Shown piece after piece: positions 5,163-21,013 of a stretch of DNA of 32,000 bases; positions within the stretch are counted from its first letter, which is position 1, and each line of letters starts with the position of its first letter. Made by a program: the position numbers and the translations under genes. The stretch comes from Candidatus Lokiarchaeum ossiferum. Its GTDB lineage: Archaea > Asgardarchaeota > Lokiarchaeia > Sigyniarchaeales > Promethearchaeaceae. The DNA is taken from contig CP104013.1 in NCBI GenBank assembly GCA_025839675.1, positions 4,470,001 through 4,502,000 on the forward strand, written 5' to 3'. The notes beneath the pieces are model-generated. The model was not told where the DNA came from. It worked only from the letters and a program-made list of their open reading frames with translations, and made no database searches.

Positions 5163-6239
5163 ATGACTGAAGAAGAGAATGCAGCTCAAAAAGCTGCCGA
5201 AGAAGAAGCCGCTAAAAAAGCTGCTGAAGAAGAAGCCGCTAAAAAAGCTGCTGAAGAAGAAGCTGCTAAAAAAGCTGCTGAAGAAGAAGCAGCTAAAAAA
5301 GCTGCTGCAGAAGACGCTGCCAAAAAAGCTGCCGAAGAAGAAGCTGCTCAAAAAGCTGCTGAAGAAGAAGCCGCCAAAAAAGCTGCTGAAGAAGAAGCCG
5401 CTAAAAAAGCTGCCGAAGAAGAAGCCGCCAAAAAAGCTGCTGAAGAAGAAGCCGCTAAAAAAGCGAAAGATAAAAAAAAACAAGAAGAAGATAAAGATAA
5501 TCTTAAATTCTGTATGGGAACTAGTGATCTACTATTCAAGGTTCTTAAAGCAATTGATTTTAAGGGTGGAGAATGTTCAGTATCCTCATTAACTGTTGCA
5601 TTAATGTTAGATGAGAAAGTGTTCATTGATGGGTTAAAAACTGGTTTAATGTTGAATTTATTAGAGAAAGATGGCGATATTTTTGCAACAACCGATTTGG
5701 GTGATCGCTTGCTGAGTTTAAGTAGTGTAGAACAAAAATCCTTAATTGCGAAAGAATTTTTAAAAATTGAATCGTACCGAGATATTGTATTTCGGATGAA
5801 AATGGCGACTGGAAAAGAAATTCAGATCAAAGAACTTGAAAAAGCAATTTATATTATTTTACCTAATATTCGGGAAGAAATTCGGAAGCAAATTACATCT
5901 GCTTTCATTAATTTTGCAAAATATGCTAATATTATTGAAGAATTGGCACATGCGGGAAATCCAAGTGTTAAATTGACTACAAATGGTGAATCTCAATTGG
6001 ATGCGGTTCTTCAAGAACGAAAGCGGAAAAAGAAAGGGGGTGCAAGTTCAGGACCGTCTTCATCAAGTGCTCCAGCAATTGTTAGTGATTTATCTTGTCA
6101 ATCTTGTGGGAAACCTATTATGTCTGATTACAACATGTGTCCCTATTGTGGAACCGCATTGAAACGTTCTTGTTCGAATTGTGGCAAGGAACTTCAACCT
6201 GGGTGGAAAATGTGCCCATTCTGTGGTACTGCACAGTAA
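5163..6239 (+). CDS. Repeat protein: N-terminal (AEEEAAKK)n charged-alanine helical rod, central winged-helix-like region, C-terminal double zinc ribbon
   Basis: About 12 copies of an 8-aa AEEEAAKK unit are followed by a K/E/D linker. The central region LLFKVLKAIDFKGGECSVSSLTVALMLDEKVFIDGLKTGLMLNLLEKDGDIFATTDLGDRLL is wH-like. The C-terminus CQSCGKPIMSDYNMCPYCG...CSNCGKELQPGWKMCPFCG has four CxxC pairs, i.e. a DZR-type double zinc ribbon (6096-6236). Confidence 0.75.
   Translation: MTEEENAAQKAAEEEAAKKAAEEEAAKKAAEEEAAKKAAEEEAAKKAAAEDAAKKAAEEEAAQKAAEEEAAKKAAEEEAAKKAAEEEAAKKAAEEEAAKKAKDKKKQEEDKDNLKFCMGTSDLLFKVLKAIDFKGGECSVSSLTVALMLDEKVFIDGLKTGLMLNLLEKDGDIFATTDLGDRLLSLSSVEQKSLIAKEFLKIESYRDIVFRMKMATGKEIQIKELEKAIYIILPNIREEIRKQITSAFINFAKYANIIEELAHAGNPSVKLTTNGESQLDAVLQERKRKKKGGASSGPSSSSAPAIVSDLSCQSCGKPIMSDYNMCPYCGTALKRSCSNCGKELQPGWKMCPFCGTAQ
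5181..5464 (+). repeat. Tandem 24-nt coding repeat (consensus gctgctgaagaagaagccgctaaaaaa), about 11-12 copies
   Basis: Directly visible head-to-tail 24-nt units that differ mainly at synonymous third positions (gcc/gct/gca, gaa/gac). The repeat generates spurious ORFs in other frames and on the opposite strand. Confidence 0.95.
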
Positions 6240-6292
6240 GATTGATCAAAATGCCATAACTTTTTTACTTTCTTCTTTTTACAATTTATTTA

Positions 6293-6970
6293 ATGCCGAA
6301 ATATTATTCCACACCAAAATATGTGTCCATTGATTTGTTCGGAAAAGTTGATGTTGGAAAAACAACCATCTTTGAATTATTTGCTGGAACGCGGTTATTG
6401 AAAGATGGAGGCAATCTATCCTACGATTTTCGCACGTATTACGCGAAGTGTTGGGTTTTGCAGCAACGATGGGAACATACTATGGTTTTTTTGGCAGATC
6501 CAAAGTTAGAAATGCGATGGAAAGACCTTCGGGCTAAGCAACTGCGGAAACTTATGGAGCCTACCAACATTTTGATTTTAGTTACTGATTCAACCCTTGA
6601 AGATGTACGGTCCATTAAACAATCCTTCGAAATGTGGCCAAAAATTAAAAAAAAATTAATTATTTTTGTAATTGCCAACATGCAAGATAAGGAAGGACGA
6701 CTATCTGTAGAAGAAATCAAACAATTTCTTGAAATGAAAGATGTTATTGGAATTTCGGCGATTCAACCGGGAGCAAAGGAAAAAGTGGAACAATTCATTG
6801 AAGATGCTACTTTGCGTTTTTTTGGAATGCTGGCAAAACGGGGGCAAGCTCTATTGCTCTATGATGATGATGAAATTGGATTTGGAAAAACTCCAAAAGA
6901 GAAGAAATCTAAAAATGGGAAGTATTCTTCACGAATTAGAAAGTTACAAAAAAAACTCGATGAAAGTTAA
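6293..6970 (+). CDS. Small Ras-superfamily-like GTPase with atypical switch II and a polybasic C-terminal tail
   Basis: G1 P-loop GKVDVGKTT (6341-6367). G4-like ANMQD (NKxD variant). G5-like ISAI. The hydrophobic strand LILVTDS occupies the position of the post-switch-II strand. The expected DxxG is replaced by ADPKL. The tail reads GKTPKEKKSKNGKYSSRIRKLQKKL. Confidence 0.7.
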   Translation: MPKYYSTPKYVSIDLFGKVDVGKTTIFELFAGTRLLKDGGNLSYDFRTYYAKCWVLQQRWEHTMVFLADPKLEMRWKDLRAKQLRKLMEPTNILILVTDSTLEDVRSIKQSFEMWPKIKKKLIIFVIANMQDKEGRLSVEEIKQFLEMKDVIGISAIQPGAKEKVEQFIEDATLRFFGMLAKRGQALLLYDDDEIGFGKTPKEKKSKNGKYSSRIRKLQKKLDES

Positions 6971-6987
6971 TCTGTAGTGTCTCTTTT

Positions 6988-8193
6988 TCATATATTCGCA
7001 GATTTGGATAGAAGTTCTTGTTCAATATCCCGTTTTTCCCTGAATTTTTTTCGAAATATACTTAAAACTCCGAAAATCAGGAAATATCCAAGTATTATAA
7101 TAATTAGGGTTGTTTGGTGCGAATCTGCGAGTGTTATCATGTTCATTGCAACCCCAATGATAAAACCTGTAAACAATCGGCTGGAAGTGGTTGCTTTACG
7201 AATAAGTAATGCTTGTAATCCCCAATCTGTCAGTGGTAGCAAAGGTAATAATGCTGCAAACCAAAATGCCCATACTCCTGATATTTGTATTTCCAAACTA
7301 TAGGTAATCAATGAAATGATAAAAAATGTGACCGCGGCCCCCAAAATCATGGCTGTGCATCGAGTACATAGATAAACACGTACTTTTCCCAGTTGAATTA
7401 CTATGGTATGATCATCTTCAAAAAATGAATGATGGGTTAGACTTTGGACATAACATTCCCCTGGCTGAGGAAAATAGGATTTTAATTGTTCATCATCTTC
7501 ATTTTCTTCTTGTGCTACTAAGATGGCTTCTTCTTCTTTTGAAAGAGGAAAGTATGGGCTTAATAATCGATCCAGAATCCACAAACCTAACCATGATGGA
7601 ATAATAATCAACAAATTATTTACAAAGAAATTTGCTAATAATAGCCATCGCGCTGTATTAAGGGTCAATTCTGCTGTAAATGTAGTATTAAAAATAAATC
7701 CAAAAAATAATATTGGAAGAAAGAGCAGGAGTTGTGCTAAACTAAAGCCTATTTGTTTGAATACATGTTTTCCTTGATAATATTCGCCTCCTCTATATGG
7801 GCGAAAACTTTCCGCCAGAATACTCCATCCTACATAAACAATTAGTATCCATTGGATATTTGTAGAGTGAGTCCATTCTAGGAAAAATTCTCCTGCAATT
7901 CCCGCGAAAAATACTGCATATCGATTAAATATTTTTGCTAAAATCCACAAGATACAAAGCGAAATCCAAAATAGAATGTGAAAATGTAATAAAATTTGTG
8001 GATTTAGGGAATAGATCGTTAGATAATTAAGTGCTCTAATACCGATCGCAAGGAAATAATACAGCGAAAAGCTCAATAAAAATTCAAAGAAATAAAACAA
8101 ACTTTGCTCAAAGGCGCCTCGGTGAATATTTTTCAAAGGATCATGATGTCGTTTCAAAGGTTGAGCTATATTCGTAGATGAGTCCATTTTCAC
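6988..8193 (-). CDS. Polytopic membrane protein with C-terminal DUF2085-like module
   Basis: About 10 hydrophobic segments. The C-terminal part HHSFFEDDHTIVIQLGKVRVYLCTRCTAMILGAA ... PLTDWGLQALLIRKATTSSRLFTGFIIGVA resembles the DUF2085 pattern (H.SF...CaRCtG..lG ... DW..q...r.s.n..R..tG). This is recalled from memory. Confidence 0.5.
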   Translation of the reverse strand: MKMDSSTNIAQPLKRHHDPLKNIHRGAFEQSLFYFFEFLLSFSLYYFLAIGIRALNYLTIYSLNPQILLHFHILFWISLCILWILAKIFNRYAVFFAGIAGEFFLEWTHSTNIQWILIVYVGWSILAESFRPYRGGEYYQGKHVFKQIGFSLAQLLLFLPILFFGFIFNTTFTAELTLNTARWLLLANFFVNNLLIIIPSWLGLWILDRLLSPYFPLSKEEEAILVAQEENEDDEQLKSYFPQPGECYVQSLTHHSFFEDDHTIVIQLGKVRVYLCTRCTAMILGAAVTFFIISLITYSLEIQISGVWAFWFAALLPLLPLTDWGLQALLIRKATTSSRLFTGFIIGVAMNMITLADSHQTTLIIIILGYFLIFGVLSIFRKKFREKRDIEQELLSKSANI

Positions 8194-10320: not shown

Positions 10321-13300
10321 ATGTTTAGTTTCATAGTTCTTGGTGATTCAGCGGCAGCCGTTGATTATTTCGATCATGCTGGCCTTTCGAATATAGATCA
10401 AGGTGATATTTCGAAATGGGAAAAACAGTGCACCTTTCAAGATAATGAAATTGATTTGACCCTCGATGTTCCATTAACTGATGGGTTTGAATATGATGAA
10501 TTTTTACCGATGGCAGATGGTATTTTATACTTTCTAAACCCAAATTTTCCCGAACAATTTGCCTTATTTGAAGATATTGTTCAAATCATTCAGAAAATAA
10601 ATCGAAATGTACCCTTTGCTTTAGTTTTCCGGGATTCTAAACGTTTGATTCAAACCTCAACTAATCAATTACTATTTTCTATATGGGAAAAGTATTCTTT
10701 TGAAGCTTTTATCGCAGATTTAGGCAGTCCTAATTATACAGATTATATTTTGGAAAGTATTTGCGAGAGTATTATAACTCGCCAAGCCATTATTAATCTT
10801 GATACTGCTTGGATGCAGGTACCCTTATTATATTCAAAAGTAAATAGGCACATTAATACTCAAGATTGGATCTCTGCGGCCCGTTTGGTGGAAAAAATTG
10901 CACTTATTTCACAAAAATGTAAAAATTCTGATTGGCAAATTTATGCTGAACAAGCCGCTTGGTTATATGCAAAAGGTGGTGCAGTGTTAGATGCTTCAAA
11001 GATTATTGGTAATTTTAATGAAGTTTACGCTGAACGTTACAAAAAAATTTATGTGGATCAGTTAATTTATCAAGGTAGAGTTCTTCACAATGAGAAAAAT
11101 TTTGCCCAAGCTGCCCAACAATTTGAAACGGCGGGAAATTGGGCACGTTTCGAACTCAGTGATTCTATTTTAATTAAAAAATCCTTAAAAAATGCAATAT
11201 ATTCTTGGATCTCCGCTTGTGAAATTCAAAATGCTTTTTCTCTTTTGGAACGATTTGATCATAATGAAATGATTGATATTTTAGAAGAAGTTACTGACAA
11301 AATTGCTGGGGTTGCTGATTTTCTCACTTCTCAAGGGCAAGATGATTTTGCCAAAGCACAATTATATCTCTGTTTTCAAAAGTATCAAAAAGCGGGATTA
11401 TTTGATTCCATCAAAGTATTTGCTAACAAAACAGTTAAAATTCTTAAACGAATTTTAGAGCGACATCTGCGAAATCTGGATGTTGATTCTGCAAAATTGA
11501 CTCTTGACGAACTTTATAATATTTGGGAGACTTTTGGTATTGAATCTGAAAACATTGACTCGTATCTTTTGCGAGTTGGAACTTTATTTATCGAAAGGCA
11601 AGATTTTCAAAAAGTGGAAGTTATCCTTCCCAAAATTGAATCTGGTGAAATTAAAAATCAACTTTCAAAAGCTCGTATGGATGAAGAAGAACGGATTAAA
11701 TCAGATTTACGACAAGACGAATTGGAGGATTTAACCGATGCTGTCGCTATCCTTAAAACGTATGTAGATGAAGAAAAAAAACAAATTTTGGCATATAATA
11801 GTCAAGTATATCAAGAAACTCAAGATCTCCTCGAACAAAAGCAAATTTCGTCAGGTTTAAAATATATTCATCAATATTTTCAGTGGTTAACGTTTATTGG
11901 TGAATCTGAATTTTCTTATGATGTCTACGAGCGGATTCTCTCTTTTTATCTCACCTTGGGATCTTTTGATAAATTTATTGAAGAAATCTCCCATTTACCC
12001 GAAGGACGGAGAAAAGTGTATCTTCGGGAAAAAGTGTCGATTATTATTAATTCTTTGAACAATCTCATGGTGGATGGCGAGACTACATTGATTTTACACT
12101 ACTCAACTTCCATCATCAAATTATATCGAAATCACCTGCTTTATGATGAGTCTCGTGATTTTGCCGAACTCTTGGTCAAGTTTTTACTTGAAAAAAGTAA
12201 GACCATGGCTCAGCAAGGAATTTTAGCAAGTATCAGTGAATCTATCGGTCTTGTCTCTCAAGTTGAAAACATCTCAAAGATGTATTTGGATTCAAAACAA
12301 TTTGATTTGGATCCCATCTATTCCCCTATTGTTATTTTTTATATAAAAACTGCTGATTTCAAGGAAGCTCGAAAATACAATGAGCGAATTAATTCGGATT
12401 CTCTAAAAGAAACGTATTATTCACAAATTGAAGAAATCGTGGGCGAAAAAAGTCGATCCAAAGCGATGGAGGCTCAACAGAAACAAGAAGTCCAATTTTT
12501 CGTGGAGCAACTCTCGCAATTACGAAATTTGGCTCGAGATCAACGAATTACTTCTGAAAATCTGTTGCGAATGCGGTTAGGTTTAAGAAGACGGTATTTT
12601 CAAAAACCCATTGATCTTATTCTGAAGGGAGAGTTTCCAGACGCTGCTCAACAATATTTTGAAGTCGCAGAAACTTTGATTAAAACAAAGAAATTTGAAT
12701 TGGCAGGAATTAGTGCGGGTATAGGAACTATTCTCTGTCTTTTAGTAAAAAATGTTTCTCTTCTAAAAAATCACTTAGATAAACTTAATCTTATGGCTGG
12801 GGTATCCATTTCAATATTTAAAGAAATATTTTCCGTGAAACTAATCTATTACATTCTTAAAATGATTGAGATTAATAATCCAACGTTAATTATAAATTCT
12901 TTGAAGCTATACGAGAGTTTGGCCTTATTTCCTGAAGAAAAAATGGTCCTTGATACTTTACTTGGAAAAGATATTGATTTTGAAGCATTAGTTCATTCCG
13001 ATCTCAGTTCACGCATGGATTCAGGCGAAATTAAGTTTTCAACGAATCACCAGCATCTTATCGATAAAATCGCGTTTGATCCATCTCAACGATCAAAACG
13101 AAATTCCATTGAACAGAAATTTTGGGAAGAAGCACAAAATTATTTAGCCCGACAAGAATATGAACAAGCATCTTTAAGTTATTTAGCCCAAGTAGATCAC
13201 TTAGTCGTTCGCAATAATGAAAAATTTGCCATTATATCCATCGTAATGGCCTTTTTAGCCTTATTGAAAGCGAAAAAACCTGCAGAAGTTTATTTCGAAT

Positions 13301-14055
13301 ATGAAAAATTTTATTATCAATTTGATAAAAAATATGAACGCGTGGCAAAATCTGAATTATTTGCTTTACTTGAGATAATATTGCAATATTGGGTGAAAAA
13401 AAGTGCTCAACAGACGATTCGACAGATCCTTTTGGCATTTCAATCGAAATTGCCGTTATTTGATTGGGAATCTTCTCTAATTAGTGGCTTTTTAGGGGAT
13501 TTTGAAGGAAAAGGATCTCAAATTTCATCAAATACGGATAAGAATGTGCATCTTGGTTCTCCTGATGAATTTGATGATTCAACTCTTCAAACTCAGCAAA
13601 TTGTGGTTTTAACCCAAGAAATCAGTGATATGCAGTCGAATTTCGCTGAATTGCTCCATAAACGTAATTCAATGGTGAATTCTTATTATAAAGACATAAT
13701 TTCTTACCTGACCGCCGAATCCTATTTAGAGGCTGCTACTGAATATGAAAAGCTTGGGAAACGCATGGCACGACGAAATGATTTTAATGCTGCAAGTTTA
13801 ATGCTTCTCTTATCTCTGCTTTCACGCTTAAAACATAAACAATCGGTGAATGAAATCACTGTTGCCCTTGATACCGTCTTGGGAAAATTAGGAATAGTTA
13901 AAAAAATTCTTGACGATCACTTTGGAGTCAAAATCGCTTATTTTGTTCTGGATGTATTAAAATCTAAAAATGAAAACTTAAAAACAAATATCCGAAACCT
14001 CCTCCAATTATTACCGCTTCTATCTGCGGAAAAGGTACTTGTGCAGTTGGAATAA
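10321..14055 (+). CDS. Giant protein: N-terminal degenerate Ras-like G domain (pseudo-GTPase) fused to a ~1080-aa TPR/alpha-solenoid
   Basis: The N-terminal ~165 aa follow the small-GTPase strand/helix order with every nucleotide motif degenerated. FIVLGDSAAAVDYF stands for ivlGdsGvGKs. IDLTLDVPLTDGFEYDEF stands for v.l.iwDTAGQE. ADGILYFLNP stands for a.g.ilvyD. NVPFALVFRDSKR stands for ip..lvGNKxD. The rest has recurring helical-hairpin signatures of TPR/SNAP-like type (YQGRVLHNEKNFAQAAQQFETAGNW, KGEFPDAAQQYFEVAETLIKTKKFELAG, YLARQEYEQASLSYLAQ, YLTAESYLEAATEYEKLGKRMARRNDFNAAS). Confidence 0.6.
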   Translation: MFSFIVLGDSAAAVDYFDHAGLSNIDQGDISKWEKQCTFQDNEIDLTLDVPLTDGFEYDEFLPMADGILYFLNPNFPEQFALFEDIVQIIQKINRNVPFALVFRDSKRLIQTSTNQLLFSIWEKYSFEAFIADLGSPNYTDYILESICESIITRQAIINLDTAWMQVPLLYSKVNRHINTQDWISAARLVEKIALISQKCKNSDWQIYAEQAAWLYAKGGAVLDASKIIGNFNEVYAERYKKIYVDQLIYQGRVLHNEKNFAQAAQQFETAGNWARFELSDSILIKKSLKNAIYSWISACEIQNAFSLLERFDHNEMIDILEEVTDKIAGVADFLTSQGQDDFAKAQLYLCFQKYQKAGLFDSIKVFANKTVKILKRILERHLRNLDVDSAKLTLDELYNIWETFGIESENIDSYLLRVGTLFIERQDFQKVEVILPKIESGEIKNQLSKARMDEEERIKSDLRQDELEDLTDAVAILKTYVDEEKKQILAYNSQVYQETQDLLEQKQISSGLKYIHQYFQWLTFIGESEFSYDVYERILSFYLTLGSFDKFIEEISHLPEGRRKVYLREKVSIIINSLNNLMVDGETTLILHYSTSIIKLYRNHLLYDESRDFAELLVKFLLEKSKTMAQQGILASISESIGLVSQVENISKMYLDSKQFDLDPIYSPIVIFYIKTADFKEARKYNERINSDSLKETYYSQIEEIVGEKSRSKAMEAQQKQEVQFFVEQLSQLRNLARDQRITSENLLRMRLGLRRRYFQKPIDLILKGEFPDAAQQYFEVAETLIKTKKFELAGISAGIGTILCLLVKNVSLLKNHLDKLNLMAGVSISIFKEIFSVKLIYYILKMIEINNPTLIINSLKLYESLALFPEEKMVLDTLLGKDIDFEALVHSDLSSRMDSGEIKFSTNHQHLIDKIAFDPSQRSKRNSIEQKFWEEAQNYLARQEYEQASLSYLAQVDHLVVRNNEKFAIISIVMAFLALLKAKKPAEVYFEYEKFYYQFDKKYERVAKSELFALLEIILQYWVKKSAQQTIRQILLAFQSKLPLFDWESSLISGFLGDFEGKGSQISSNTDKNVHLGSPDEFDDSTLQTQQIVVLTQEISDMQSNFAELLHKRNSMVNSYYKDIISYLTAESYLEAATEYEKLGKRMARRNDFNAASLMLLLSLLSRLKHKQSVNEITVALDTVLGKLGIVKKILDDHFGVKIAYFVLDVLKSKNENLKTNIRNLLQLLPLLSAEKVLVQLE

Positions 14056-14196
14056 AGAACCCGGACTTTTTACTTTATTTTCTCTTCTACTCTTTCCAGT
14101 GAAAATTTAATGGGTAATGTTTGCTGAAATTCGAACGCGAATTCCTTTAGGTTTAAAGGACTTAGATCTCTTTACTAGGTAATTCTCGAAAGAAAA

Positions 14197-14204
14197 AGGT
14201 GATC
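14197..14204 (+). promoter_or_regulatory. Shine-Dalgarno-like ribosome-binding site (AGGTGATC) for the 14207 gene
   Basis: The 8-nt AGGTGATC ends 2 nt before the ATG at 14207. It is complementary to the conserved 16S rRNA 3' end (5'-GAUCACCU-3'). Weaker GGTGA cores sit before other starts, e.g. 17072-17076 before 17084. Confidence 0.55.
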
Positions 14205-14206
14205 AA

Positions 14207-15562
14207 ATGGGATTTATGGAAAAATTAAAAGAAAGTTTTTCTTCTGTGGCAGCGCAGATGAAAGAAAATACTAAACAACTTGAGAGTGTAATCAAAGAAA
14301 ACTCGGAATTATTGGATTCTCATGATAAACTCAGTAAAGAAAGTGCAGAGGGTATCTTAGAATTAAAGAAATATGGGGAAAAAGAAACTCCTCTCTTAAA
14401 AGATGCTTTTGTTGGTCTCTCAGAGACACTCAAAATGGTGGAAGGAGAACGTGCTAAGATGACTTCTGAATTAAGAAGTCAATTTTTACAACCTATGAAG
14501 GAATTAGTTGCTCAATTTGATCAATTAGAGCGCGAAATCAAAGAAGATGAATCTGCTGCCAAAAAATTGGCAAAAATTAAAAAGAAATTGGACAAAGAAA
14601 AAGCAAAACCGGCTGAAAAACAAAAACCGGGAGCGATTGAAAAAGCTGAAGCTGATTATCAAAATGCAGTCAAGATTGCTGAAAAGGAACATGATGATGT
14701 GATCAAGGCAACCGCTGCATATCAAGAACAAAAAATCAGGAAAATTAAAGAATGCTTGGCTGTGATTGTTGCCCAACATAAAGGTTTTCATCAAATTGTA
14801 CTATCGAATTTAACCGATACTAAAATGTATATTGAAATGATTGTGCCGGAACAGAAGGAAGAGGTCAAAGAAGCTATTGCAGAAACCCTTGAAAATCTGG
14901 AAGAATCGCTTAAAAGTTGTGATCAAATATATACTGTCATCGCCCATGTCAAAAAAGATTTACACTCCGTTATCAAGGAAAACATGGAAATGTTGAATGC
15001 TCACCTGAAAGTCACTAAAGAAAGTAAGGAAGGAATCAACGCTTTTAAAGATTATGGATTGAAAGAAAGTCCTGCTCTCGGTGAAGCTCTATCTTCTTTA
15101 GGGGGTTCACTTGAAATCATAGAAGTTAATAGACAAGCTTTTGTCGAACAAATGAATCATGAATTTATTCGCCCCCTAAAAGAATTGATTGATACTTGGG
15201 ATAAACTCCGAGAATTAATCAAAAAAGATGTTAAATCGCTTAAAAATGATCAGAAAATAGTCCGAAAACTCGAAAAATTGAAAATGCAAGATCCTACAAA
15301 ATTGAAACCTGGTTTATTGGAGGAAAAGGAGAAGGAAGCTGCGTCTATTCGAGATGCGTCTACGAAATTGCACAAATCAATGCTCACATCCTATCAAGAA
15401 TTCACTGCTGCTAAGTCTAAAACCATGAAAAGTTGCTTAGGGTCAATGGTGGAGCGCAACTTAAAGTTTCATAATCAGGCTTTAAATATTATTGATAATG
15501 CAGAAATTTTAGTCTCACAAATTGATATTTCAAAAGAAATGGATTATGAATTGGACATTTAA
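14207..15562 (+). CDS. Tandem BAR-domain-like protein (two ~225-aa three-helix units; the first has an N-terminal amphipathic helix)
   Basis: Internal duplication with a 227-aa offset: S27-VIKENSELLDSHDKLSKESAEGILELKKYGEKETPLLKDAFVGLSETLKMVEGERAKMTSELRSQFLQPMKELV versus S254-VIKENMEMLNAHLKVTKESKEGINAFKDYGLKESPALGEALSSLGGSLEIIEVNRQAFVEQMNHEFIRPLKELI. Each unit matches remembered endophilin/amphiphysin BAR patterns: a ...FGrELG...ALgevGEam..L.evkd.ld.evkqnFidPLq.L block, a K-rich Kkl...r.dyd.kkk segment, and a terminal helix VAQHKGFHQIVLSNL / MVERNLKFHNQALNIID resembling vqAQleYHkQAvqIL. The N-terminus MGFMEKLKESFSSV is amphipathic. Confidence 0.6.
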   Translation: MGFMEKLKESFSSVAAQMKENTKQLESVIKENSELLDSHDKLSKESAEGILELKKYGEKETPLLKDAFVGLSETLKMVEGERAKMTSELRSQFLQPMKELVAQFDQLEREIKEDESAAKKLAKIKKKLDKEKAKPAEKQKPGAIEKAEADYQNAVKIAEKEHDDVIKATAAYQEQKIRKIKECLAVIVAQHKGFHQIVLSNLTDTKMYIEMIVPEQKEEVKEAIAETLENLEESLKSCDQIYTVIAHVKKDLHSVIKENMEMLNAHLKVTKESKEGINAFKDYGLKESPALGEALSSLGGSLEIIEVNRQAFVEQMNHEFIRPLKELIDTWDKLRELIKKDVKSLKNDQKIVRKLEKLKMQDPTKLKPGLLEEKEKEAASIRDASTKLHKSMLTSYQEFTAAKSKTMKSCLGSMVERNLKFHNQALNIIDNAEILVSQIDISKEMDYELDI

Positions 15563-15580: not shown

Positions 15581-15588
15581 TTTTTTTT
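15581..15588 (+). terminator. Oligo-T tract (T8) downstream of the BAR-like gene, candidate archaeal terminator
   Basis: A T8 run lies 19 nt after the stop at 15562, between convergent genes. Archaeal RNA polymerase terminates at oligo-T. Specificity is weak in this AT-rich DNA. Confidence 0.35.
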
Positions 15589-17083: not shown

Positions 17084-18440
17084 ATGCCAATGGCTGAATT
17101 TACAGATTTACTGACCCAACCTTGGGGGGTTTTTGATGGAGTTGATATCGAGAAGTATATCATCGGAACCTATATTGTCAAAGTCGGAAAAAAACAAAAT
17201 GGACTTACTATGGGACAGTTCGCGGCTGTCGAACAAAGCACCGGAACATGGATTCGTGTTCCTGCTGAAACCGCGGAAGTACGCAAAGATCATGTGGCCA
17301 AATTATTAGGTTGCTATGAAATTCCTAATTGGGAATATGAAATTCCAAAGGATGTGGAAAGTCGCGATTATGTAATGATTATCGGCTGGCCTAAGGTCAA
17401 CTTGCTCAATGAAGATAATAAATTGAACTTTGCTCTCCTCTTTACGGCTTTAATCGGCAATATTTCCATGGGTGGCAAACTCAAACTCATGGATATTTGG
17501 TTTCCCAAAGATATTTTGGCTACCATGCCTGGACCGAAGTTTGGAATTGAAGGGATTCGCAAATATCTTGGAATAGAAAAGCGACCTTTGCTCAATAACA
17601 TGATCAATTAAGAATAGGATTTCCCTATCTTAGATTAAACCGTGTACTGGGCATACGGCTGCTGTCGCTGGTGATTTAGCTTACCAAGTCGCTCTTGGAG
17701 GTGTGGATGTTGTCAAGGATGATGAACTTATCTCCGGGCACGCGTTCAATACCATTGAAGATCGTGTCACTGCCGTTATGGCGGGTTTAGATAAAGCCAA
17801 AGAAGAGACCGGTGAGAAGACTATCTACATGATCAACGTCACCGACAATCTTCCCAAAGTGTATGACAATATTGCAACCGTTCAAGCCCATGGGGGTAAT
17901 GGTATTCTTATTAACTATTTACCACAAGGTCTCTCCGTCGTTCAACATATTGCGGAAGATCCAAGCGTCAAAATCCCAATTCAGATGCACATGGATTTCG
18001 CCGGAGTATGGTATTGCGATGCGTGGAGTGGCGTTACCAGCAAACTTACGCTTGGTAAATTGCCCCGATTAGTGGGTGGGGATGTAGTTGTTATGCCTGC
18101 TCCTTATGGTAAAGCTCCAGTGGTACCTGAACGATTTATTCAAAATGCTATGGAATGTGTATATCCTTTACCTGGCATTAAACCGATGATGCCTATGCCT
18201 AGCGGTGGCATAACTCCTGGTATGGTCGAATTTGCCATGCGAGATATTGGATCAAACATCATGATTGGTGCTGGTGGTGGAATTCATTCTCACGAGATGG
18301 GACCAACATCTGGAGCCATTGCCTTCCGTCAAGCCATTGATGCCTTTATGGCCTGTATTCCTGCCAAGAAAGCGGCCAAAGAACACAAAGAGCTTGGTGT
18401 GGCCATGGGTATGTGGGGCAGCAAAAAAACTGGCAAGTAA
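17084..18440 (+). pseudogene. RuBisCO large-subunit-like protein (form IV/RLP-type active site) interrupted by a 31-nt insert. As encoded it splits into 17084-17611 and 17634-18440
   Basis: N-terminal half: AAVEQSTGTW (aaESSTGTW), LIGNISMG (GNvfg), EKRPLLNNMI then stop. C-terminal half, in the +1 frame from 17634: IKPCTGHTAAVAGDLAYQVALGGVDVVKDDE (iKPKlGl...GGlDf.KDDE), YGKAP (loop-6 GK), PSGGITPG, GAGGGIHSH, GAIAFRQAID. Removing 17606-17636 restores RPLLNNMI-KPC with the same RPLL-to-KP spacing and the same 26-residue K-to-K(DDE) spacing as spinach K175/K201. The track start at GTG 17703 is an artefact of the split. Confidence 0.85.
17606..17636 (+). other. 31-nt self-contained hairpin insert interrupting the RuBisCO-like gene
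   Basis: aattaagaataggatttccctatcttagatt folds as 13 bp: 17606-08 with 17636-34, G17633 bulged, 17609-12 with 17632-29, A17613 bulged, 17614-18 with 17628-24, loop AUUUC. It contains UAA (17609-11) in the upstream frame and UAG (17631-33) in the downstream frame. Boundaries can slide by up to +2 nt (AA/AA). Confidence 0.8.
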
Positions 18441-19588: not shown

Positions 19589-21013
19589 TTAGAAATGGAT
19601 AATAAGATTTGGTAAGGATTGTAATTCTGTTGTGACATTTTGGATCGGATTACCGGTCAAATCGATTTCTTGCAAATGGTGTAGCCATTTGATCGAGGCT
19701 GGAATTTTATGGAGTCCACAATTTTTGGCACGAATCGTAGTGATATGGCCGTTTTCACTTGTAAAGGTAAAATCCAATTGATTTTCGGGCTCATCGCCCT
19801 CAAATGTTAGAATATCCATAAATGATTCATCAAATGGTGATAAATTGAACTGATCTTGGAGTTCTAAAAGAAATTCGATTTCTTTAATCGAAGTGGTTGG
19901 AATGGATTGCAATTTCGCATACAGTGCTTTATAGGAAGGGTTTTTTGAAGTTAAAAGGTTATTCAAGGCGAGACGATGAATATGTAATTCATTTTCATGC
20001 TCCAAAGACAAACTTTGCCAAAATTGAGGGTGAATTGGTGCCAAAGGGTTATTTGCTGCGGCTTCCCGAACCTTTGCATCGCTTTCTGTTTCGATACTAA
20101 AAAAATTGCCAAATTCTGAAAACCGAGGTGCTCCCTCACTACGCGCCGCGGATTTTCGAACTTTGGGATCGGGTTCAGTTATTTCGGATAGAAATCGAAT
20201 ATATTCCTTAAAAGATGGTGCTTTTGGATTTTTAGCGATGAAGGTCCGCAGAAAGCCATGCTTGGAACTAAACCCTTTTCTGAAATCGGTTAGGGTTACT
20301 GCGGCGGGCTGTTGCAATAATTGTGTATAATCAACACTCTCAAGGAACAATTCAATCGGAGGATCCATTTGGAAGATTTTTATCACTATTTCCTCAAAAA
20401 AAGGAAATTTGGGATGGTTTGGATCATCGTAGATGTCAGGCACTTGGGAGGGGATATATTCTTCCGGAATATAATGTAACGTTTCTAAGACGGGGATCAG
20501 GTTGGCTATCAAGCAAGAATCATGCCGTTTGCCTTCATAATTGCAATCGGTAGCGATTTGATCTAAAAAATCATATAAATACTTAACATCAATTAAGCTC
20601 ATAAAGCGAAGTAATCGATTGGATAAGGGAATTCCAAGCTGGCTTTGGTTTTCGATGTCTGCTTGAATTTTAAACGCGTCTTCTCCCATTTCTGCAATTC
20701 CTGCAACCCAAGAATTTAGGGCTTGGAAAATGTCTTCCATGGTGAGATCATCCACGATCTTGTCCTCACTGGATTCAGAAAAGATATGGGCTTCTTCAAG
20801 GTCGGTGGGATCATTTTCTTCAGACCAAGGTATTTCATCGGAAGTTGAGAGAGCCAGATGGATACAATCAATTTTTTCTTCCTGGATAATGTCTCCTGAC
20901 TGATTATCTACCAATTGCATTATAACGGATTGTTTTCTGGATTCTGGATCGACATGTGCAATAAGGAATACGTCAGAACGGATGAATTGATGCTTGGATG
21001 TATAATCTCCCAT
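19589..21013 (-). CDS. Repeat protein with HEAT/LRV-type repeats and C-terminal leucine-rich repeats
   Basis: EPDPKVRKSAARSEGAP and ESDAKVREAAANNPLAP match the D..VR..AA.np..P LRV/PBS-HEAT pattern. The C-terminus CGLHKIPASIKWLHHLQEIDLTGNPIQNVTTELQSLPNLIIHF is a canonical LxxLxLxxNxI LRR. Confidence 0.65.
   Translation of the reverse strand: MGDYTSKHQFIRSDVFLIAHVDPESRKQSVIMQLVDNQSGDIIQEEKIDCIHLALSTSDEIPWSEENDPTDLEEAHIFSESSEDKIVDDLTMEDIFQALNSWVAGIAEMGEDAFKIQADIENQSQLGIPLSNRLLRFMSLIDVKYLYDFLDQIATDCNYEGKRHDSCLIANLIPVLETLHYIPEEYIPSQVPDIYDDPNHPKFPFFEEIVIKIFQMDPPIELFLESVDYTQLLQQPAAVTLTDFRKGFSSKHGFLRTFIAKNPKAPSFKEYIRFLSEITEPDPKVRKSAARSEGAPRFSEFGNFFSIETESDAKVREAAANNPLAPIHPQFWQSLSLEHENELHIHRLALNNLLTSKNPSYKALYAKLQSIPTTSIKEIEFLLELQDQFNLSPFDESFMDILTFEGDEPENQLDFTFTSENGHITTIRAKNCGLHKIPASIKWLHHLQEIDLTGNPIQNVTTELQSLPNLIIHF

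Follow-up and report, generated by a model that had tools for sequence, protein, structure and literature searches.

A tandem BAR domain protein related to eukaryotic CIBAR/FAM92 proteins in Candidatus Lokiarchaeum ossiferum

BAR domains are core membrane-curvature modules of eukaryotes. Candidatus Lokiarchaeum ossiferum is among the few cultured Asgard archaea, and its cells bear thin branched protrusions and constrictions. A preliminary description of a 32,000-nucleotide stretch of its genome (positions 4,470,001 to 4,502,000 of contig CP104013.1, referred to here as the window) proposed that a 451-aa product encoded there joins two BAR-like units in tandem, and it regarded BAR domains as an essentially eukaryotic module. 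The locus raises the question of whether both halves of this protein are BAR domains, how they are arranged relative to each other and what such an arrangement could mean in an archaeon. The premise of an essentially eukaryotic module does not hold: a putative Lokiarchaeum BAR domain protein has been cited since 2015 (Spang et al. 2015, via PMC4917890), the bacterial BdpA followed in 2021 (PMC8687657), and Vps5-BAR homologues from Asgard archaea were added in 2023 (Eme et al. 2023, PMC10307638). BAR domains in Asgard archaea are already known; the conserved tandem architecture, of which the searchable literature yielded no description, appears to be the new part.

The gene and its internal duplication

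The coding sequence occupies 14207..15562 (all features with coordinates lie on the + strand of the window), begins with ATG and specifies a protein that is 100% identical to Ca. Lokiarchaeum ossiferum UYP47554.1 (NEF87_003839), for which the UniRef name "BAR domain-containing protein" is already on record. The RefSeq models start at Met4 and comprise 448 aa; the start at 14207 is favored because of the spacing of a Shine-Dalgarno-like GGTGA motif (14198..14202), located 4 nt 5' of the ATG, and because orthologues start with MGF or MGY. Approximately 50 nt 5' of the start codon, TTTAAAG (14152..14158) may be an archaeal TATA box; 19 nt past the TAA stop codon, eight consecutive T residues (T8, 15581..15588) are likely to act as an archaeal terminator. 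A convergent methyltransferase gene is situated beyond the T8 run on the 3' side of the tandem BAR gene, which appears to be monocistronic. The idea that the MG start is N-myristoylated was rejected, because residues 3 and 6 misfit the eukaryotic consensus and many homologues begin with MS.

The two halves of the 451-aa protein are homologous, and their duplication is far beyond chance. BLASTP comparison of residues 1-227 with residues 228-451 gave 33% identity over 215 aa (E 1e-34), and the SVIKEN pair to which the preliminary description had pointed is in place at residues 27-32 and 254-259. The lysine-rich segment (residues 117-135) and the two "FH" helices (residues 188-202 and 414-430) also lie at the positions that it had given, and its all-helical prediction agrees with the prediction of helix over nearly the whole protein, with three long helices per unit. 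The repeat, which had also been said to be visible in the DNA, is barely so: the single in-register DNA repeat is 27 nt long with 67% identity, the codon-aligned nucleotide identity between the halves is 45%, and third positions are 36% identical versus 28.5% expected from composition. The duplication is old and detectable through the protein.

The N-unit BAR domain comprises residues 1-210 (14207..14836), with helices at residues 3-57, 62-133 and 143-210 based on AF2 and Foldseek. Its lysine-rich distal arm and tip (residues 112-145, 14540..14641) have a net charge of +5 and carry a conserved K..K.KP.EK.KPG loop. An acidic inter-unit linker (residues 211-227, 14837..14887), which has a pLDDT of <50 at residues 217-224 and differs in length between orthologues, leads to the C-unit BAR domain (residues 228-451, 14888..15559), recognized by its Pfam and PDB CIBAR1 matches. 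The C unit possesses helices at residues 248-286 (with residues 219-245 ahead), 289-359 and 370-437 and an acidic tail at residues 438-451; the net charge of its lysine-rich distal arm and tip (residues 339-372, 15221..15322) is +6. The whole 451-aa protein is mildly acidic, with a pI of 6.2.

Homology and fold of the two units

Both units are BAR domains by homology and by fold, in agreement with the tandem that the preliminary description had proposed; what profile and structure searches brought up was specifically the BAR superfamily rather than coiled coils in general. As a single sequence, the C unit matched CIBAR1 in the PDB over residues 228-444 (E 1.8e-6) and scored just under the Pfam cut-offs for BAR (PF03114; 24.9 bits against 28.5, E 1.9e-5) and FAM92 (23.2 bits against 23.6, E 5.5e-5), while the whole window protein reached 20.0 bits for FAM92 (cut-off 23.6) and its N unit gave no direct match to Pfam BAR. 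For the N unit, close single-unit relatives (36-42% identical) exceed the Pfam thresholds of BAR_3 (PF16746), FAM92 and BAR; single-unit relatives, of approximately 220 aa, are numerous. A search of 1.84 billion proteins yielded 129 relatives, which matched FAM92 (90/129), BAR_3 (41/129), BAR (20/129) and Vps5 (16/129). Scores above the curated cut-offs were obtained for the Ca. Harpocratesius repetitus orthologue (BAR 55.2 bits, BAR_3 42.1) and the L002 orthologue (BAR_3 40.1, FAM92 32 bits); the C units of three orthologues score above threshold for two or more of the Pfam families BAR, BAR_3 and FAM92, and some orthologue C units lie above the FAM92 cut-off at 24.6-35.5 bits. A Pfam BAR-superfamily match is present at the family level, with the window protein alone just below threshold. 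Furthermore, a profile of 34 family sequences matched the BAR domain of CIBAR1/FAM92A over the full domain (E 3.7e-21) as well as amphiphysin (5.5e-5), arfaptin-2 (1.8e-3) and the MIM I-BAR (4.7e-3). A word-indexed homology search with the 34-sequence profile found two proteins only, probably because words rich in Lys and Glu filled up its list of candidates.

The predicted structures possess the BAR monomer fold, a bundle of approximately 200 residues with three long kinked helices. The N unit alone (residues 1-227, AF2 with 34 homologues) was modeled with a pLDDT of 93.8 and a pTM of 0.81, and its top 50 Foldseek matches in the PDB were BAR-superfamily proteins without exception (50/50), with TMt values of 0.84 for FAM92A, 0.89 for arfaptin-2 (rmsd 2.2) and 0.81 for amphiphysin. 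The full-length AF2 model, based on an alignment of 6 sequences, has a pLDDT of 86.9 and a pTM of 0.77; its best Foldseek matches in the PDB were FAM92A structures (TMt 0.90, rmsd 2.0 Å over 212 columns), with weak E-values of 0.08 and above.

The protein is a member of an Asgard-archaeal BAR family, of which the closest characterized relatives are the eukaryotic CIBAR/FAM92 proteins. CIBAR1/FAM92A (PDB 9UHD and 8CEG; Pfam PF06730) is both the best sequence match and the best structural match (TMt 0.84-0.90), and it shares with the Lokiarchaeum protein a three-helix monomer of equal length, the dimer-interface Y, H and V/I residues, the E-K salt-bridge pair and, in lipid-binding regions 2 and 4, conserved lysines. 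In contrast to the two diverged units (30% identical) in one Lokiarchaeum chain, FAM92A has a single homodimerizing BAR domain, and the Lokiarchaeum protein is devoid of most of its central basic patch and of the eukaryote-type C-terminal tail. We know of no CBY1 partner in archaea.

The suggestion that the extreme N-terminus resembles the amphipathic H0 helix of N-BAR proteins was not borne out. Residues 1-22 have a hydrophobic moment of 0.33-0.42, which ranks at the 47th-77th percentile among windows along the protein itself, and a net charge of 0. The C-unit counterpart (residues 228-247) aligns inside the crystallized domain of the classical BAR protein FAM92A, at the start of α1, and the N-terminal stretch is a continuous part of helix 1 in the AF2 models, so that this feature of the N-BAR subclass is absent. 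In addition, Pfam detected neither a PX domain nor a Vps5 match in the window protein, which places it outside the SNX-BAR and Vps5 (retromer) proteins; PX is present in one eukaryote-like relative of the 129.

Proposed pairing of the units and putative membrane face

The gene product is best explained as a cytoplasmic protein with two classical BAR domains in tandem, each forming a three-helix BAR monomer of approximately 210 residues. Within a single chain, the two units would pair antiparallel into a six-helix pseudo-dimer, giving a crescent in which an asymmetric "heterodimer" is built in and obligatory. This crescent would bind anionic archaeal membranes via the conserved lysine clusters on its distal arms and tips, without a FAM92A-type central basic patch and without an H0 helix, and would sense or stabilize membrane curvature, such as that of the protrusions, necks and constrictions seen in L. 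ossiferum. Taken as a whole, this explanation, which combines a tandem BAR protein, an intrachain pseudo-dimer crescent and lysine-cluster membrane binding, is considered probable.

An intramolecular antiparallel pseudo-dimer of the two units is likely, with indirect support from the predicted model, the linker and the counterparts of FAM92A interface residues. According to the pTM formula, a value of about 0.55 or less would be expected for 451 residues if the placement of the units were uncertain; the two units are therefore confidently placed relative to each other in the model, with its pTM of 0.77. In the BAR dimer geometry, the C-terminus of helix 3 adjoins the N-terminus of helix 1 of the partner (PMC12269497), and a short linker would thus suffice. 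The dimer interface of FAM92A involves Y127, H264 and I257 together with an inter-subunit salt bridge, E131-K245 (PMC12269497), and these positions recur in both units as Y56/Y283, H195/H422 and V188/V415, with the salt-bridge residues represented by E60/K176 in the N unit and E287/K403 in the C unit. Among the 34 family members, E60 is conserved in 91% and K176 in 97%.

With regard to the putative membrane face, mutation of the region 4 lysines of FAM92A reduced liposome binding by approximately 90% (PMC12269497), and these residues correspond to lysines in both units (K98/K112/K123 and K325/K339/K350). Across the 34 family members, the K112 and K123 positions are basic in 74-79% and the K98 position in 18%, while the tip lysines K130, K134, K138 and K140 are 79-97% conserved, K130 being basic in 97% and K138 in 94%. 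The distal arm of the N unit, together with its tip, maps to lipid-binding regions 2 and 4 as defined for FAM92A (PMC12269497). Of the five residues in the FAM92A central basic patch (R108/K109/R112/R114/K116), which is critical for liposome binding (PMC12269497), one is kept.

The two units could also be BAR domains that pair between chains, the N unit with the C (or N) unit of another molecule, so that two tandems would close into a dimer, or many would join head to tail into open polymers or lattices, instead of a single-chain crescent. This arrangement is unlikely, although it is consistent with the flexible, low-confidence linker of variable length, with the frequent occurrence of BAR lattices on membranes (e.g., ACAP1, Pil1/Lsp1 and SNX coats, which are among the N-unit fold matches) and with the model-derived nature of the support for intramolecular packing; the single-chain pTM, however, implies a confident intramolecular arrangement, and the BAR topology (PMC12269497) would favor intrachain pairing by means of a high local concentration. 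Less probable again is a BAR-fold scaffold that serves mainly to bind proteins, such as a small GTPase in the manner of arfaptin or a partner in the manner of CIBAR1-CBY1. The strongly conserved arm and tip lysine clusters that map to the FAM92A lipid-binding regions argue against such a scaffold, as does the lack of any GTPase gene linked in the window or conserved across the orthologous loci, whereas the largely absent central basic patch, the mild acidity of the protein, the very good fit of the N-unit model to arfaptin-2 and the abundance of candidate GTPase partners in the lineage (about a hundred small GTPases in the Lokiarchaeum composite genome, PMC4917890) would suit it. The preliminary description had placed the gene next to GTPase-like genes, which found no support: no window ORF of at least 100 aa gave a GTPase family match, and a PDB search with the N-terminal part of the 1244-aa ORF upstream gave no GTPase match.

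A generic coiled coil or helical bundle of the phasin-like or apolipoprotein-like kind, with a merely compositional resemblance to BAR domains, is scarcely credible. The weak E-values of the full-length Foldseek search and the many weak coiled-coil matches in Pfam (E >0.01) point in this direction, but the full-domain match of the family profile to CIBAR1 and the N-unit structure search effectively refute it, and the orthologues above curated Pfam BAR thresholds and the conservation of specific dimer-interface and lipid-binding residues also speak against it. The outcome that the preliminary description had named as fatal to its proposal, namely coiled-coil or helical-bundle matches alone and no BAR match, did not occur.

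Distribution, origin and meaning of the tandem form

Several Lokiarchaeial-type genomes share the tandem form, which has a single origin. It is kept in nine Lokiarchaeial-type proteins with two full units (P0001-5, P0010, P0011, L001 and L002), and its single origin follows from the grouping of the C units in one clade (bootstrap 93, NJ tree). On another contig (L004), two BAR genes lie next to each other unfused, as would be expected if a gene was first duplicated in tandem and the copies then fused. Such pairs are not general, because P0018 and P0024, which are C-like proteins of one unit, lack an N-like gene ahead of them and L004 alone has the pair; a genome scan with very specific patterns found only two extra loci. 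Comparison of the window with the orthologous loci revealed no conserved functional partner or pathway-indicating neighbor genes. A link to the CitMHS transporter gene, which is convergent at three orthologous loci, was rejected owing to its absence from the window and the P0010/P0011 loci, and a phage or mobile-element origin was rejected in the absence of a phage match.

The Asgard BAR proteins reported so far share the phylum and the domain superfamily with the tandem protein, as well as the Vps5 matches seen in part of its relatives; in those reports, they have one BAR domain each or, in the case of Thorarchaeia, are fused to Vps28, in contrast to the BAR-BAR tandem, of which no description was found in the searchable literature. 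An asymmetric crescent from two different BAR subunits, as proposed here, is formed by SNX1-SNX5 and APPL1-APPL2, both of which are among the N-unit fold matches, and Rvs161-Rvs167 is another heterodimeric BAR pair of eukaryotes. These pairs consist of separate polypeptides, whereas the Lokiarchaeum units are covalently linked, which would fix 1:1 stoichiometry and pairing. BdpA is likewise prokaryotic, has BAR-like features and is implicated in membrane sculpting; it differs in being bacterial, associated with the periplasm and outer membrane and equipped with a single BAR-like region, and it was absent from the relatives found. The searchable literature yielded no experimental work, biochemical or cell-biological, on an Asgard BAR protein.

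The case for an archaeal ancestor of eukaryotes that was already capable of membrane remodeling draws in part on Asgard BAR domains, and the known picture, in which Asgard archaea have BAR domains, is unchanged by the tandem protein. A single-chain tandem would fix the pairing and stoichiometry of the subunits and would therefore be monomeric, which is convenient for structural and liposome work, and it would let the two halves of the crescent specialize, as in the heterodimeric BAR proteins of eukaryotes. The wider proposal, put forward tentatively and at slightly less than even odds, is that a conserved Lokiarchaeial single-chain asymmetric BAR crescent arose via duplication and fusion of an Asgard FAM92-like gene and shapes cell protrusions and constrictions. 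If true, the protein would be the first single-chain BAR "dimer" and would provide a tractable archaeal model for BAR-based membrane sculpting that predates eukaryotes.

Two BAR units in one archaeal protein

The ORF at 14207..15562 (+) starts with ATG and encodes 451 aa, as given in the preliminary description. Direct reading of the + strand places a GGTGA motif 4 nt 5′ of the ATG and a T8 run 3′ of the stop codon, before a convergent methyltransferase gene, so that the tandem BAR gene looks monocistronic. The product is 100% identical to the hypothetical protein NEF87_003839 (UYP47554.1) of Candidatus Lokiarchaeum ossiferum, a cultured Asgard archaeon and the source of the window (PMC9834061); its RefSeq versions start at Met4 (448 aa), and in UniRef it already carries the name "BAR domain-containing protein". 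The internal duplication is evident from the alignment of residues 1-227 (N unit) with residues 228-451 (C unit), which are 33% identical over 215 aa (E 1e-34), and the SVIKEN motifs, Lys-rich segments, and FH-containing last helices lie where they had been placed. The duplication was also said to be visible in the DNA, where it is weak at best: the strongest repeat in register at the DNA level spans 27 nt with 67% identity, and the codon-aligned nucleotides of the two units are 45% identical, with third positions at 36% versus a composition expectation of 28.5%. The duplication of the BAR units is old.

Profile and structure searches bore out the core proposal of a tandem BAR protein, and the matches were not restricted to generic coiled coils. 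The C unit alone matched Pfam BAR (E 1.9e-5, 24.9 bits, below the cut-off of 28.5) and FAM92 (E 5.5e-5, 23.2 bits, below the cut-off of 23.6), and the whole-protein query matched the BAR domain structure of CIBAR1/FAM92A at residues 228-444 (E 1.8e-6). The N unit gave no direct match to Pfam BAR but shares 36-42% identity with single-unit proteins scoring above the BAR_3, FAM92, and BAR cut-offs. Searching 1.84 billion representative proteins with a profile yielded 151 relatives, of which about 60 had E below 1e-10 and most were single-unit proteins of about 215-235 aa. Among 129 relatives, Pfam matches were to FAM92 (90), BAR_3 (41), BAR (20), Vps5 (16), Arfaptin (5), and IMD (3), and curated thresholds were exceeded by the orthologues of Ca. 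Harpocratesius repetitus (BAR 55.2 bits, BAR_3 42.1) and of a second MAG (BAR_3 40.1, FAM92 32 bits). A profile of 34 archaeal units retrieved CIBAR1 (E 3.7e-21), amphiphysin (5.5e-5), arfaptin-2 (1.8e-3), and the MIM I-BAR domain (4.7e-3).

The AlphaFold2 model of the full-length protein, built from a six-sequence alignment (pLDDT 86.9, pTM 0.77), contains three long helices per unit and a low-confidence linker at 211-224. In Foldseek searches of the PDB, in which E-values with this query were weak (0.08 and above), the top match was the FAM92A BAR domain (TMt 0.90, rmsd 2.0 Å, 212 columns), followed by APPL1, endophilin, Bin1, and BRAP1, interspersed with low-probability non-BAR matches. When the N unit was modelled alone with 34 homologues (pLDDT 93.8), all of its best 50 PDB matches belonged to the BAR superfamily, including arfaptin-2 (TMt 0.89), FAM92A (0.84), amphiphysin (0.81), and Bin1 (0.80). 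On these structural matches, both units are BAR monomers of the classical type.

Pairing of the units and the putative membrane-binding surface

A single-chain antiparallel pseudo-dimer is the probable arrangement, on indirect evidence from pTM, linker topology, and conserved interface residues. Given the definition of pTM (d0 about 7.6 Å for 451 residues), two well-folded halves of uncertain mutual placement would reach at most about 0.55 by computation, and the observed value of 0.77 corresponds to about 6-7 Å of predicted error between the units. Within each subunit of an antiparallel BAR dimer, helices 1 and 3 are parallel, and they run opposite to helices 1 and 3 of the other subunit (PMC12269497); therefore, the C-terminus of helix 3 adjoins the N-terminal end of helix 1 in the partner, and an inter-unit linker of 8-17 residues fits antiparallel and not parallel packing. 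The residues required for FAM92A dimerisation, Y127, H264, I257, and F256 (PMC12269497), have counterparts in both units (Y56/Y283, H195/H422, V188/V415, and I187/M414, N unit/C unit), and the inter-subunit salt bridge E131-K245 corresponds to E60/K176 in the N unit and E287/K403 in the C unit. Conservation at these dimer-interface positions ranks with the highest in the family (E 91%, K 97%, Y/F 97%, H/Y 94%). Pairing of units between chains, which would yield a swapped dimer or polymer, is possible; the intramolecular pseudo-dimer is the probable form.

The concave face of FAM92A is lined by five basic regions, and mutation of either region 1 (central) or region 4 causes ~90% loss of liposome binding (PMC12269497). 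Region 4 positions are Lys in both window units (K98/K112/K123 and K325/K339/K350); across the family, K112 and K123 are 74-79% basic and the K98 position only 18%. At the tips, region 2 is rich in lysine (K130/K132/K134, also K138 and K140, 79-97% conserved), and the tip segments carry net charges of +5 (N unit) and +6 (C unit). Only one of the five basic residues of region 1 is kept (K41/K268), and the overall pI is 6.2. The Lys-rich arms and tips, together with the largely lost region 1, suggest that membrane binding would likely be electrostatic and mediated by the arms and tips, and it is predicted to be weaker than, or differently distributed from, that of FAM92A. The proposed N-BAR-type H0 helix found no support: the N-terminal stretch has an ordinary hydrophobic moment (47th-77th percentile of the same protein) and a net charge of 0, it is modelled as a continuous piece of helix 1, and its C-unit counterpart aligns inside the crystallised BAR domain of FAM92A, a classical BAR protein, at the start of helix 1.

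Origin of the tandem form and genomic neighbourhood

Two complete units were detected with the single-unit HMM in nine proteins. Besides the L. ossiferum protein, these comprise one relative at 87% identity, three at 38-42%, the divergent P0010 (553 aa) and P0011 (498 aa), and two from genome loci. Those with a named source come from Lokiarchaeum, 'Promethearchaeota archaeon', and Ca. Harpocratesius, and among the 150 best relatives two full units are confined to archaeal proteins. Neighbour-joining analysis of the units places all nine C units in a single clade (bootstrap 93), and the N units cluster, with weak support, among themselves and with single-unit proteins; the tandem form thus has a single origin, which predates the divergence of its lineages. 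The N unit has diverged less from the single-unit family (36-42% identity) than from the C unit of the same protein (30%).

A metagenomic contig (ENA ERZ21869602 ctg72012l, 6001-7300) carries two neighbouring BAR genes separated by 44 nt. The first encodes P0012, a single-unit protein of 221 aa; the product of the second starts with MGFLDKLKDSF, is 41-44% identical to P0012 and both window units, and looks frameshifted near 7140-7210 and cut short after VERNLNVS. This unfused pair fits tandem gene duplication followed by fusion and may be a precursor or relic of the tandem form; its second gene could also be a decaying duplicate. No adjoining BAR gene was found at the loci of two other C-like single-unit genes. 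Within the N unit of P0010 (5001-6662 of its contig), the helix 2-3 region is partially re-duplicated, with two matches to HMM positions 105-219; a gene for a small GTPase of the Arf/Ras family is found ~1.8 kb downstream, on the other strand. P0056 (467 aa), in which an N-terminal HEAT/PBS-lyase repeat region is fused to a single BAR unit (~242-441), represents a further non-eukaryotic BAR domain architecture.

The GTPase-like neighbours described earlier were not recovered, as no window ORF of at least 100 aa matched a GTPase family. The 1244-aa ORF directly upstream (10321-14055, +) has no Pfam match, a PDB sequence search with residues 1-220 found nothing, and the ORF is not a conserved BAR-gene neighbour in other genomes; its start, MFSFIVLGDSAAAVDYF, superficially resembles G-domain strand 1 and lacks a GxxxxGK[ST] P-loop. 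The 474-aa ORF at 19589-21013 (-) gave only a weak C-terminal leucine-rich-repeat match (LRR_4, E 0.004), with no Roc/COR or GTPase domain detected. Window neighbours comprise a wHTH regulator, a SAM methyltransferase, membrane proteins, an LRR protein, and a disrupted RuBisCO-like gene. The last, a large-subunit-like gene at 17084-18440 (+), is split over two ORFs in different frames (Pfam RuBisCO_large_N and RuBisCO_large), with a frameshift near 17605 and an in-frame TAG soon after (…ISLS*IKP…), and could reflect a pseudogene, a sequencing error, or recoding. At three orthologous loci, a convergent CitMHS-family transporter gene follows the tandem BAR gene (L001 9546-11192, L002 9454-11151, and L003 9408-11018, all -), and in two of the three, genes for a pair of CoA-transferase subunits lie upstream. 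The window lacks this synteny and shares no neighbour genes with the orthologous loci, and there is no operon clue to the function of the tandem BAR gene.

Relation to known BAR proteins

The premise that BAR domains are essentially eukaryotic is not borne out by published Asgard and bacterial cases. Discussion of a putative Lokiarchaeum BAR protein dates from 2015-2016 (PMC4917890), Asgard Vps5-BAR homologues were described by Eme et al. (2023), among them a fusion with Vps28 in Thorarchaeia (PMC10307638), and BdpA is a bacterial BAR-like protein (PMC8687657). In the searchable literature, neither a description of a BAR-BAR tandem nor a biochemical study of any Asgard BAR protein was found. 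CIBAR1/FAM92A is the closest characterised relative, and the closest functional analogy would be heterodimeric BAR proteins, such as SNX1-SNX5 or APPL1-APPL2, with their two subunits covalently linked. [quoted passage not shown]
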